DNA of 64,000 bases, from positions 1 through 64,000 of IMG/VR virus record IMGVR_UViG_3300022204_000004; one strand, written 5' to 3'. Made by a program: the position numbers and the translations under genes. Positions 19,275 to 36,843 of the stretch are shown here, one piece after another. Every line of letters begins with the position of its first letter. Position 1 is the stretch's first letter. The stretch is from a virus. The notes beneath the pieces were generated by a model. The model was not told the origin of the DNA. It did no database searches and worked only from the letters and a program-made list of their open reading frames with translations.

Positions 19275-19282
19275 TATATTTG
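19275..19282 (+). promoter_or_regulatory. -7 element TATATTTG, divergent, with no + strand gene downstream
   Basis: Matches TAnnTTTG in intergenic DNA. Confidence 0.55.
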
Positions 19283-19286
19283 TCAA

Positions 19287-19402
19287 GAAGTTTTCTACAA
19301 AAATCGTTTCAGAGAGTTAGGGCCTCTTGCTTACAAACGGTTACTTCGTTTACATAACTGCATTGGGAAAAGAGCTATTTCGTAAGATTTAGCTCTTTTT
19401 TT
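19287..19402 (+). ncRNA. Candidate ~115-nt small RNA
   Basis: Promoter, then internal hairpin (TCGTTT...AAACGG), then terminator AAAAGAGCTA...TAGCTCTTTTTTT. Confidence 0.4.
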
Positions 19403-19530
19403 TCAATTACCAATTCATTAGGCAAAGCGAACAAAGCAATCCTATAACATCGTTTTTCAAACTCTTCCTTGGATTCATCTGGATAGCTAATAATAGAACC
19501 TCCTTGATAGCCTAAACTTGCTTTAAACAT
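19375..19530 (-). CDS. Small hypothetical protein (51 aa)
   Basis: Read by hand: MFKASLGYQGGSIISYPDESKEEFEKRCYRIALFALPNELVIEKKELNLTK*; its start overlaps the end of the MTase gene. Confidence 0.5.
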   Translation of the reverse strand: MFKASLGYQGGSIISYPDESKEEFEKRCYRIALFALPNELVIEKKELNLTK

Positions 19531-26515: not shown

Positions 26516-26731
26516 TTATTTATTTAAAGGATTAATATTAAATTGATTTTCTACAAATATCAATGCACCGTTTTCTACGGCTTCATCAATTTTGCAGTCA
26601 CATGCATTATCTTCTACATTGAGTTGCCAATCTACCTGATGACTTTCGTCATAAGCAAATACTGCATGTGTTTTCCATACTTTCTTTGCTTCTTCGGGAG
26701 TTATTTCGCTCCATGTACTATGAAATGCCAT
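26516..26731 (-). CDS. Hypothetical protein
   Basis: Operon packing. Confidence 0.6.
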   Translation of the reverse strand: MAFHSTWSEITPEEAKKVWKTHAVFAYDESHQVDWQLNVEDNACDCKIDEAVENGALIFVENQFNINPLNK

Positions 26732-26858
26732 GTTTTTGTCTTTTAAATTTCTTCATTGCTGCTTTTACTGTCGTACTCCAGCCTTTAGGCTTGTAAGAGC
26801 CATCGGTAATAAGAGTTTCAAGAAACCCTGTACGTTTGCATTTTCTGAATACTTTCAT
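26718..26858 (-). CDS. Small basic protein (46 aa)
   Basis: Read by hand: MKVFRKCKRTGFLETLITDGSYKPKGWSTTVKAAMKKFKRQKHGIS*; first ORF after the terminator. Confidence 0.55.
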   Translation of the reverse strand: MKVFRKCKRTGFLETLITDGSYKPKGWSTTVKAAMKKFKRQKHGIS

Positions 26859-26880
26859 TGTTTTTGCGAGTTATAAAATT

Positions 26881-32252: not shown

Positions 32253-32285
32253 TTGTTATAATTTATTTATCCTAAAAACCAATTA

Positions 32286-32648
32286 AAAGTGGCTCCCTAT
32301 AACCACTTTACAATAATGAGCATAAACGCTGATAAGCCACTCCAAGCCTATCCAAAGCATCTAACAACAACTATAAGCCTACCCGTTAGCAATCAAACAA
32401 GTCTAATTATTAACCAAATAATGAACAGATAAGCAGAGAATAGCAGCGTCTAGACAGTTCGCTTCGTGTGTCTTAGTGTGGCTTAATAGCTATAGAGATA
32501 TAATACTATATATACTCTCTTTAGCTTAAATCAGCGTTAAGCCCAGTGTTTATGAGGGTTTACAGCGATTTAACGGCTTGAAAAAGTGGTTCTGTGTGAC
32601 CACTTTCTATCCAATATTAGCCAAAAGTGGTCCGTAATAACCACTTTT
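32286..32648. repeat. Three palindromic sites AAAGTGG(T/C)-N8-ACCACTTT (putative RepL operators/iterons; candidate origin)
   Basis: 32286-32309, 32583-32606 and 32624-32647 have identical arms and spacing but different spacers. Confidence 0.8.
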
Positions 32649-32675
32649 TATGTTGTCTATATCAGTCTAATAATG

Positions 32676-32683
32676 TATATTTG
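32676..32683 (+). promoter_or_regulatory. -7 promoter element (TATATTTG) of the RepL-like gene
   Basis: TAnnTTTG 22 nt upstream of the ATG; lies inside the 12-mer TGTATATTTGAC, which is duplicated at 33113-33124. Confidence 0.75.
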
Positions 32684-32705
32684 ACTGTTCGCAAAACAAC
32701 ATATT

Positions 32706-33110
32706 ATGGCAAGTAACCTAGAGATCCATTCTCACATATCGACTTATCTTGAGAGCCAACGTACAGACATCCTAACGGATGACTTCGGTTACTCTACCTA
32801 CACGGCTCCCAATACAATGTTCCACATGCATAATGCAATGCCCGAGATCATGATAGCTATGCCTCCTCGCGTCCTCAAGGTTTGGCTTCGTAGTATCTCT
32901 CGTCTTAAACGAAACCACGACCCTGTTATTGCCTGTACCATTGTCATGGGCTACACGCACTACAAGGATATCGTGTCCAAAGGCTCCTACTACAAAGCCG
33001 TTAAACAGCTTGAAGAGGACAAGTTTCTGATACCTACCCTCAATAAAAAGATTTATATTGTTAATGTTAAGCATGTCAACAAACTTTATAAGCCTAAGTT
33101 TGAGATATAG
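32706..33110 (+). CDS. RepL-like winged-helix replication/regulatory protein
   Basis: VLKVWL...VSKGSYYKAVKQLEEDKFLIPT...IYIVN wHTH pattern of the RepL family; a lone counter-oriented gene with its own promoter. Confidence 0.65.
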   Translation: MASNLEIHSHISTYLESQRTDILTDDFGYSTYTAPNTMFHMHNAMPEIMIAMPPRVLKVWLRSISRLKRNHDPVIACTIVMGYTHYKDIVSKGSYYKAVKQLEEDKFLIPTLNKKIYIVNVKHVNKLYKPKFEI

Positions 33111-33114
33111 TTTG

Positions 33115-33122
33115 TATATTTG
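33115..33122 (+). promoter_or_regulatory. -7 promoter element (TATATTTG) for a small RNA
   Basis: TAnnTTTG 4 nt after the RepL stop; no + strand ORF follows. Confidence 0.7.
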
Positions 33123-33126
33123 ACAT

Positions 33127-33198
33127 GCATAATGATGGTGTTTTTGCGAACAACTTCATAACAGAGCCACTTAAACTTCCTGCTAAGTGGCTCTTGTC
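33127..33198 (+). ncRNA. Putative trans-encoded antisense sRNA against the RepL leader/AUG
   Basis: 33128-33152 is complementary to 32686-32708 (22 bp, 1 mismatch, 2 bulges); ends in the hairpin AGAGCCACTTA...TAAGTGGCTCT. Confidence 0.7.
33163..33194. terminator. 11-bp hairpin between convergent units
   Basis: AGAGCCACTTA / TAAGTGGCTCT; U-tracts are weak. Confidence 0.65.
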
Positions 33199-33200
33199 AT

Positions 33201-33731
33201 TTATCTTTGTTCTGACATTAGATTGGGATTAACTATTCTTAAGTTCTCAGAACAGTCTGCCAATTTCTTGACGTTCTTCACAAGCTCATAGCGTAGCCAT
33301 TCGCCTTTACTACGTGACTCAAACTTCCATCTGTCAAGCTTAACACCTAATGGGTGCATCATCTCCTCTTTCTTGCTGATGGCCTCATTGACCAGCTCTA
33401 GTCGATAATGCTCAGGGATATCACTGTTGCCAGTAGGCACAAAGTGCTTTAGCCTGAAAGGGTTCTCATGGATCTCTTGGCTCATGTTGTCGGAGCAATA
33501 GGTTGTTCCCACATACTCCTGACCAGGCAACAAGTGAGGTGTTGTACCTCGTCTGAGCCTACTGGCCAACTTGTTGCTGAGCTCCACAGTAGCCTGTGTC
33601 CATGGAGAGTTCGGAGGAAACTGAGTCCTCATACAATAGTAACCTGTCAATGGTTCCATACCATCAACCACTTCGTGTGTTGGGTTTGCTTTAACCAAGC
33701 AATACTCAATTCTAACTTCTTTTGCATTCAT
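33201..33731 (-). CDS. Early hypothetical protein
   Basis: Operon packing. Confidence 0.65.
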   Translation of the reverse strand: MNAKEVRIEYCLVKANPTHEVVDGMEPLTGYYCMRTQFPPNSPWTQATVELSNKLASRLRRGTTPHLLPGQEYVGTTYCSDNMSQEIHENPFRLKHFVPTGNSDIPEHYRLELVNEAISKKEEMMHPLGVKLDRWKFESRSKGEWLRYELVKNVKKLADCSENLRIVNPNLMSEQR

Positions 33732-36255: not shown

Positions 36256-36501
36256 GATTAAAAAGGATTTAGTTAAAACTTAAAAGACTCTCTTTTAAGC
36301 GATATATTATTTGAGGGGGGCTACCCAAAAACGAAACATCGATGGGGATCAAATGATATAGTGTTCCGCGAGCGAGGCTTTTTTAAAAGGGGGGGCTAGT
36401 TGTGTGCCACACAGAGGCGTGGGGGTATTCTTACGGGTCAAAAAATAATTTTGGATAGGTTATGAAGAATTGTTATATTGTGTGGGGATTAATTAATATT
36501 T

Positions 36502-36553
36502 AACCCTTTCCGGAACTTGTCAGAGAGTATCTTCAAACGGAAAGGGTTTTTTT
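36502..36553 (+). terminator. Terminator-like hairpin with a long loop
   Basis: AACCCTTTCCG...CGGAAAGGGTT followed by a T-tract. Confidence 0.7.
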
Positions 36554-36615
36554 GTATATTAGCGGTATTATGAATCAGCTTTAATTAGCTAAGGAGGTTC
36601 ATGGTAGATTTGGGT

Positions 36616-36648
36616 GGTTGAGCGGCAGGGATGTCGCTCACCTTTTTT
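36616..36648 (+). terminator. Intrinsic terminator
   Basis: GGTTGAGCGGCA GGGA TGTCGCTCACC TTTTTT. Confidence 0.7.
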
Positions 36649-36794
36649 ATATGGGTTTTAAAAAAATATCGCGAACCCTACGGGCTGTATATTAGGGTGT
36701 TGCGGGGGCGGTGTTTGGATTATACATTATTTTTTCATAGTTTTGTTATATAAAATCGATACAACTATGGAGTGTTATTTGAATAACCAAGGAT

Positions 36795-36826
36795 GAAACC
36801 CTTACTTTTGCGAGTAGGGGTTTCTT
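36795..36826 (+). terminator. Terminator-like hairpin
   Basis: GAAACCCTTAC...GTAGGGGTTTC; TAGTTTTG promoter element upstream at 36738-36745. Confidence 0.6.
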
Positions 36827-36843
36827 AGTTATAGTTGTTAGAT

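Follow-up and report, generated by a model that had tools for sequence, protein, structure and literature searches.

Adjacent, nonoverlapping antisense RNAs are known from tisB/istR-1, zorO/orzO, the c4 RNA of P1 and P7, and the CI RNA of P4, and the antisense RNA CopA of R1 controls a plasmid replication gene. Antisense control of an initiator gene is described for RNAII and repB of pMV158 (PMC4485353), and the kilA-repL lytic replicon of phage P1 is reported, as cited in a later paper, to be accompanied by an antisense RNA (PMC306884, cited in PMC9948254). Small RNAs derived from 3' untranslated regions (UTRs), OppZ and CarZ of Vibrio cholerae, repress their parental transcripts (PMC7398697), and pairing between 5' and 3' UTRs occurs in icaR of Staphylococcus aureus (PMC3868564) and hbs of Bacillus subtilis (PMC5737220). 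Here we analyze a locus in an uncultivated marine phage (IMG/VR record IMGVR_UViG_3300022204_000004; genome of 76.9 kb, 97% complete), of which a stretch of 64,000 nt, hereafter the window, was studied. A gene for a 134-aa winged-helix protein is followed, on the same strand and without overlap, by an element whose RNA, complementary to the leader and AUG of that gene, is likely regulatory. This was the central idea of an earlier, sequence-based reading of the window (the original prediction), and it is borne out across all seven loci compared, each of which keeps the layout and the pairing. The features on which the argument turns are as follows.

32706-33110, plus strand: protein gene, 134 aa, with a C-terminal winged-helix domain; unnamed family.
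32676-32683, plus strand: P1, a Bacteroidota -7 promoter box, TATATTTG, with a TTG 20 nt upstream; predicted transcription start at ∼32688.
32686-32708, plus strand: leader arm, from the predicted mRNA 5' end through the AUG (32706-32708); core UCGCAAAA.
33115-33122, plus strand: P2, another -7 box, TATATTTG, which follows the stop codon by 4 nt; predicted small-RNA start at ∼33127.
33128-33152, plus strand: anti-leader arm, core UUUUGCGA, complementary to 32686-32708.
33127-33205, plus strand: noncoding RNA of ∼75 nt, predicted from box, arm, and hairpin; the same stretch would be the 3' UTR of a read-through mRNA.
33163-33194, no strand assigned: 11-bp GC-rich hairpin (arms 33163-33173 and 33184-33194), a probable bidirectional terminator.

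The anti-leader arm is an imperfect reverse complement of the leader arm, with 22 bp by hand count and an exact 11-bp block that joins 32686-32696 to 33142-33152. The number of base pairs and their span through the AUG had been predicted correctly; the single mismatch and two bulges of that count are replaced by about four single-base bulges. The hairpin, also predicted, is perfect over its 11 bp. Duplex energies, proposed as a check against shuffled controls, beat the shuffles in every configuration, with z-scores of -3.6 to -5.4. The whole 74-nt RNA forms a duplex of -22.9 kcal/mol versus -13.2 ± 2.7 for dinucleotide shuffles (z = -3.6, 4/2000), its single-stranded 5' arm one of -22.4 kcal/mol versus -9.0 ± 2.5 (z = -5.4, 0/1000), and both RNAs cut at their predicted starts one of -17.7 kcal/mol versus -7.5 ± 2.3 (z = -4.4, 3/1000). 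Extending the RNAs beyond their predicted starts brings weak additional helices into the folded duplex and blurs the edges of the pairing. Ranked as partners, the translation-initiation regions of the 76.9-kb genome (82 in all) are headed by that of the gene itself, at -23.1 kcal/mol (mean of -10.0, standard deviation of 3.3; next best, -17.4). By itself the window is suggestive and not decisive; the weight of the case comes from conservation in relatives.

The protein has ∼40 representative relatives among 1.8 billion cluster representatives (alignment A2). Loci compared are the window and six related ones (L003, L004, L005, L007, L010, and L012), whose proteins are 33-48% identical to that of the window. 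The closest homologs lie outside this set (P0002, 82% identity; P0003, 57%; P0043 and P0044, 46-48%). Scans for related loci that were seeded by a single protein, a two-sequence alignment, or the downstream gene returned no relative, and a megablast search of the locus against deposited phage records returned no match and no close relative.

Across the seven loci, layout and complementarity are conserved, and the pairing shows compensatory change. In all seven, a P1 box is followed by a leader, the gene and its stop codon, a P2 box, an anti-leader, and a GC-rich hairpin with a T-rich tail. The P1 box is kept as TA[CT][AC]TTTG in every locus. The P2 box is TAT[AC]TTTG in every locus and lies 4-10 nt past the stop (8-10 nt in the six relatives), with columns that are invariant in alignment A6. 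Leaders range from 17 to 81 nt. A lone plus-strand gene with a convergent neighbor is found in five of the seven. That flanking convergent gene is only 28-35% identical among loci, so intergenic DNA that is free of constraint should be randomized rather than conserved. When the leader and anti-leader of each locus are compared with 1000 dinucleotide shuffles, the locus's own pairing is better in all seven (z = -3.0 to -7.3):

Window: -17.7 kcal/mol, z = -4.4
L003: -43.0 kcal/mol, z = -7.3
L004: -13.5 kcal/mol, z = -3.5
L005: -12.0 kcal/mol, z = -3.0
L007: -16.7 kcal/mol, z = -3.1
L010: -24.1 kcal/mol, z = -6.7
L012: -20.2 kcal/mol, z = -4.5

In L003, a leader of 81 nt (17-31 nt in the other six) is matched by an anti-leader arm of 85 nt, with 51 bp along most of its length. 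Six loci have in common the core UCGCAAA in the leader and UUUGCGA in the arm; L012 instead has UCUCUAAA and UUUAGAGA, with both sides changed. Its own pair reaches -20.3 kcal/mol, compared with -3 to -10 kcal/mol for all twelve cross pairs, and its own start region scores best among the 67 targets ranked in its genome. Next to the core, the loci differ in a base pair that is U-A, A-U, G-C, or G.U. If partners are permuted among the seven loci, only 19 of 5040 assignments match or beat the true one. A lack of conserved complementarity in relatives had been named as a result that would count against the original prediction; relatives were found to keep it, through compensatory changes.

The promoter boxes frame both arms. 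As originally reported, the 12-mer TGTATATTTGAC is present at 32674-32685 and again at 33113-33124, 3 nt after the stop of the 134-aa gene, and each copy contains TAnnTTTG; the 12-mer has no further exact copy in the window. Identity over 12 nt is, in turn, peculiar to this phage, for the two promoters of each relative share only the 8-nt box. All 14 boxes of the seven loci match the revised -7 consensus TAHHTTTG, for which the spacing from box to start is 4-5 nt, and predicted starts were placed 5 nt after the G of the box in keeping with data from F. johnsoniae (PMC6847099). In the genome, TAnnTTTG has a frequency of ∼7e-4 per position (103 in 154 kb of strand). Because it is 2.4-fold enriched in noncoding DNA and several copies are 18-41 nt before start codons, a promoter role for the box is credible in this phage. 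The second 12-mer had been described as driving no open reading frame (ORF). A 35-codon frame does begin at 33125, upstream of the predicted RNA start, and no ORF is conserved in the downstream RNA unit across the loci; three relatives have no ATG there at all.

We suggest that a regulatory RNA brake is probably real and, on balance, we lean toward an autonomous RNA module of leader and anti-leader that keeps production of the winged-helix protein low. Host RNA polymerase would start the mRNA at P1 (∼32688), giving an 18-nt leader without a Shine-Dalgarno sequence. The full-length mRNA would carry the anti-leader in its 3' UTR and end at the hairpin at 33163-33194, which probably terminates both this mRNA and the small RNA on the plus strand. 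Separately, P2 would yield an RNA of ∼75 nt that consists of a single-stranded 5' arm and the terminator hairpin. The arm is predicted to form a duplex with the mRNA that begins at the first nucleotides of the transcript and includes the AUG. This duplex should block binding of the 30S subunit because initiation in Bacteroidota needs an unstructured, A-rich start region, and it may also expose the mRNA to decay. The small RNA would repress in trans and the completed mRNA would probably silence itself in cis, such that protein would be made only in a short cotranscriptional window or when the output of P1 exceeds that of P2. What the sequences show is the layout, the complementarity, and its conservation with compensatory change in seven loci; activity of P2, RNA pairing in vivo, and repression rather than activation as its outcome are inferred.

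Several observations weigh against a repressive RNA module. When 40-nt windows from both strands of the genome are ranked as partners of the arm, with the small RNA's own antisense strand excluded, the leader site is only approximately ninth of 19,222, and eight unrelated windows outscore it. L003 and L010 are the only loci in which what is left of the pairing reaches significance by itself once the core is taken out, and most of the signal in the window, L004, L005, and L007 comes from the shared core of 7-13 bp. Pairing in L004 and L005 is weak (-12 to -13.5 kcal/mol), the RNAs of other loci pair with their leaders equally well or better, and the pairing of these two loci is not specific among the six that share the core. 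In L004, the own start region is outside the top five targets (crude gene calling had picked a false start upstream in this genome) and a fold of the full mRNA shows no 5'-3' pairing. The P2 box has no recognizable -33 element; this element is weak across Flavobacteria (PMC6847099). Distant family members (Tenacibaculum phage Gundel_1, L013, and L014-L017) are in operons without the module, which is not universal to the family. Lastly, compensatory change is equally expected of an inverted repeat that acts as DNA, and the strand asymmetry that favors RNA, given below, is small.

The main rival is that the anti-leader acts solely as the 3' UTR of its own mRNA, folding back on the leader in the manner of icaR or hok, and that the box after the stop is not an active promoter. 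We regard this as unlikely, though a serious contender. No terminator is present between the stop codon and the second box in any of the seven loci (gap of 4-10 nt), so that the anti-leader has to be part of the mRNA as its 3' UTR. Folds of the whole mRNA join leader and 3' anti-leader in six of the seven loci, with a mean pairing probability of 0.37-0.77. Tight linkage of the arms is a requirement of a cis mechanism, and the absence of a clear -33 element at P2 fits a box that is not used. Fold-back in a read-through mRNA, which the original prediction had offered as an alternative, is thus supported in silico and is at least as well founded as a trans-acting RNA. A pure fold-back, however, leaves no role for the TAT[AC]TTTG that is invariant past the stop in seven of seven loci, nor does it call for the classic anatomy of a small RNA, with a single-stranded 5' arm and a terminator hairpin. 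The invariant box is the argument that a separate small RNA is probably also made, and we favor the cis and trans modes acting together.

It is improbable, in our view, that the arms function as DNA, as flanking inverted repeats bound by protein (e.g., the winged-helix protein, with looping) or as structures of a replication origin. The core TCGCAAA/TTTGCGA is kept as a sequence, not merely as a pairing, in six of seven loci, the gene encodes a DNA-binding fold, four loci pair weakly without the core, and covariation cannot distinguish RNA pairing from a DNA inverted repeat. Four points nevertheless favor RNA. At every locus, a promoter box and the AUG frame one arm, and a promoter box and a terminator the other. 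Bulges interrupt the arms, which are unequal in length. In L003, the 81-nt leader and 85-nt arm pair through many interrupted helices, far beyond a binding site. Finally, duplexes of the plus-strand RNAs sum to -147 kcal/mol versus -134 kcal/mol for the mirror RNAs and are stronger in five of the seven loci; slightly stronger plus-strand duplexes are expected if G.U pairs are used, and differences of this type favor the transcribed strand. The core of L012, changed on both sides, also argues against DNA sites, and better operator candidates are found separately, upstream of P1:

32582-32649, no strand assigned: palindrome AAAGTGGT-N8-ACCACTTT in two copies (32582-32606 and 32623-32649) just 5' of P1; candidate operators, outside the RNA pairing.

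A third copy of AAAGTGGT-N8-ACCACTTT is at 32285-32309, and the spacers of the copies are unrelated. Paired palindromes also lie 5' of the gene in L004 (∼2385-2460), L005 (∼1860-1925), and L012 (∼1375-1430), and half-sites differ in relatives, being AGTAGTC...GACTACT or CAGTACCAA...TTGGTACTG. It is plausible that these palindromes are operators of the winged-helix protein that covary with it. For an origin in or beside the gene, the upstream palindromes give no more than indirect hints. Cumulative GC skew peaks near 13 kb and has its minimum at 34-36 kb; it follows the points at which gene orientation switches rather than the intergenic region at 32.3-32.7 kb, and the minimum does not mark this locus as an origin. 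Two further DNA-based readings were considered and rejected. In a transposon-like reading, with a target-site duplication around inverted repeats, the second direct repeat is misplaced, since it lies within the right inverted repeat and not outside it, and the 12-mer is not in relatives. The arms of a supposed invertible segment are bulged and unequal in length, and inversion yields no sensible expression unit.

We think it very doubtful that pairing acts positively, stabilizing the mRNA against decay that depends on the 5' end, as in hbs of B. subtilis, or timing translation. Mechanisms that stabilize mRNA through interaction of the 5' and 3' UTRs are known (PMC5737220), and in no locus are the first nucleotides of the predicted mRNA left out of the pairing. 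Against a protective role, the duplex covers the AUG or adjoining bases in six of seven loci, and structure in the start region lowers initiation in Flavobacterium (PMC6847099). A functionless chance resemblance is scarcely credible: AU-rich sequences pair readily and eight genome windows suit the arm better than the leader does, but chance does not account for a common layout, significant own pairing, and compensatory changes across seven loci that are not near-identical copies (33-48% protein identity), or for an own start region that is the top target in two genomes.

The identity of the protein bears on what a repressive module would control. The gene had been called RepL-like, a label that family searches do not support. 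No Pfam family matches the 134-aa protein at E ≤ 1, and a search of 35 family members for RepL at E ≤ 0.1 is negative. With PF05732, a six-frame search of the 76.9-kb genome and four related records gives nothing for this gene, a family profile search of 5.8 billion proteins gives no RepL-annotated match, and the family profile finds only noise in NCBIfam and the sequences of the PDB. A PF05732 search of 301 Bacteroidota genomes was also tried; its single match is a CRP/FNR-type regulator, not RepL. Language-model neighbors alone point to RepL: a feature search ranks RepL-domain clusters first (score of 0.95, 191/256 features in common, 23/30 matches). We treat kinship with RepL as a lead, not a finding. 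The AlphaFold model, with a predicted local distance difference test (pLDDT) score of 89.5, has an N-terminal helix and hairpin and then a winged helix at residues 40-126. Structural matches are generic winged-helix domains (Z of 6-8.4), among them ORC/Cdc6, RPA32, CRP, Fur, TubR, and plasmid RepA. The proposals of copy-number control and of carrier-state persistence, made along with the RepL label, are without supporting evidence.

Should the protein turn out to initiate replication or to be a master regulator, the module would be relevant to the level of phage replication or to persistence in hosts. A more speculative extension, which we consider rather improbable, is that leader and anti-leader are a coevolving determinant of specificity, with the small RNA of a resident phage silencing the winged-helix regulator or initiator gene of an incoming genome of the same type (immunity or incompatibility). 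Lineages could then escape through a switch of type, for example from UCGCAAA/UUUGCGA to the UCUCUAAA/UUUAGAGA of L012, and lytic crAss-like marine phages would gain a plasmid-like control of copy number or superinfection. Irrespective of the function of the protein, RNA control in Bacteroidota, which do without Shine-Dalgarno sequences, is only starting to be mapped, and a module that is small, clearly bounded, and conserved offers a directly testable case of translation control through masking of a leader that has no such sequence. The element unites two known ideas: fold-back of a 3' UTR onto its own start site, and the same action in trans by a small RNA that has a promoter to itself. Changing the P2 box from TATATTTG to TATACCCG would separate the cis from the trans mode, and the two natural pairing types, that of the window and that of L012, are ready-made controls for swaps of specificity.

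In the phage genome, the 134-aa ORF is a lone plus-strand gene amid a block of minus-strand genes, with a divergent intergenic region of ∼450 bp on its 5' side. Downstream is a convergent gene at 33201-33731, with its stop at 33201; the hairpin is 6 nt beyond that stop. The terminase is ∼25% identical to those of crAss-like phages, and the description of the phage as crAss-like is acceptable provided that the kinship is understood to be distant.

Sequences that resemble parts of the module are found elsewhere. In the window, a 13-bp hairpin at 36790-36825 (plus strand), in an ORF-poor region at 36440-36830, has a loop and upper stem that read UUUUGCGA, the core motif of the anti-leader; it pairs weakly with the leader (-9.8 kcal/mol). 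A basic ORF of 46 aa at 26718-26870 (minus strand) has the leader CUCGCAAAAACA directly before its AUG, with 11 nt complementary to positions 33139-33149 of the small RNA. As a candidate second target, this leader (26858, minus strand) was rejected: its pairing, at only -14.9 kcal/mol, falls in the upper tail of the values for ordinary start regions. In L007 (1684-1700), the next downstream gene starts with AUGUCGCAAACA, which places the leader core at its own start codon, and pairing with the local small RNA is -14.0 kcal/mol; this hints that the small RNA may have more than one target. At 19275-19405 of the window (plus strand), a TATATTTG box is followed by ∼90 nt without an ORF and then by a terminator-like hairpin and T-run (19369-19405). 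The unit, an orphan in a run of minus-strand genes, is a candidate for a further small RNA. L011, a 220-kb contig of a Flavobacteriaceae metagenome-assembled genome, has a copy of the gene family at 1321-1828 in which the frame breaks after an LKRNxDP motif and no promoter box or anti-leader is located downstream. This copy may have decayed, or the assembly may be in error.

There is an architectural parallel with OppZ and CarZ, in that the predicted small RNA is the 3' end of an mRNA, has a common terminator with it, and pairs with its own transcript; this architecture and complementarity are present in all seven loci, for an RNA that is itself predicted. To our knowledge, Bacteroidota lack Hfq. 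Whereas OppZ and CarZ are cut by RNase E and depend on Hfq, the module has its own conserved promoter box, which suggests a primary transcript rather than RNase E processing or Hfq dependence. The target differs as well, being the whole leader and AUG of a single-gene transcript, and the module is borne by a phage of Bacteroidota hosts. With icaR, the hok fold-back inhibition element, and hbs it has in common, in silico, a segment of the 3' UTR that is complementary to the initiation region of the same mRNA, with pairing predicted in six of seven loci. The 3' segments of those three have no separate promoter, unlike the module. In icaR a Shine-Dalgarno sequence is masked, and the leaders here have none; pairing in hok, unlike that in the module, belongs to a pathway of toxin activation.

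As in pMV158 RNAII, CopA, and, from what its citing source conveys, P1 kilA-repL, a short, constitutively made RNA would be directed against the leader or start region of the gene for a small DNA-binding or initiator protein, a gene that is likely under operator control too. On the same reading of those sources, their RNAs are encoded on the opposite strand across the target and complementarity is perfect and automatic. The module RNA is on the same strand, ∼420 nt downstream, and its imperfect complementarity is kept by coevolution. With arms that are on one strand and 420-445 nt apart, the locus is not a cis-encoded antisense system of the CopA, RNAI, or RNAII type, and unlike those replication systems of plasmids and phages, its protein is not assigned as RepL or an initiator. 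The systems tisB/istR-1, zorO/orzO, c4, and P4 CI are similar in that the regulator is beside its target without overlap and pairs with a short stretch of 5' UTR, with linkage keeping the cognates together. Their targets are small toxic peptides or an antirepressor operon, and their RNAs are upstream, divergent, or processed from the same transcript; none has a promoter inside the 3' UTR of its target. A type I toxin-antitoxin system, in which the target is shorter than ∼60 aa and usually a hydrophobic toxic peptide, does not describe a locus whose target is a soluble winged-helix protein of 134 aa.

The predicted small RNA has no meaningful match in Rfam at E ≤ 1, and our literature searches on crAss-like phages together with antisense or small RNAs gave no regulatory RNA described for these phages. 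We also know of none for marine flavobacterial phages. Antisense control and control by 5'-3' UTR pairing are already known. New to this locus is their combination, in which the 3' UTR of the target doubles as a promoter-bearing small-RNA unit that shares the strand of its target, does not overlap it, and is directed at the whole of a leader that has no Shine-Dalgarno sequence, in a phage of Bacteroidota.

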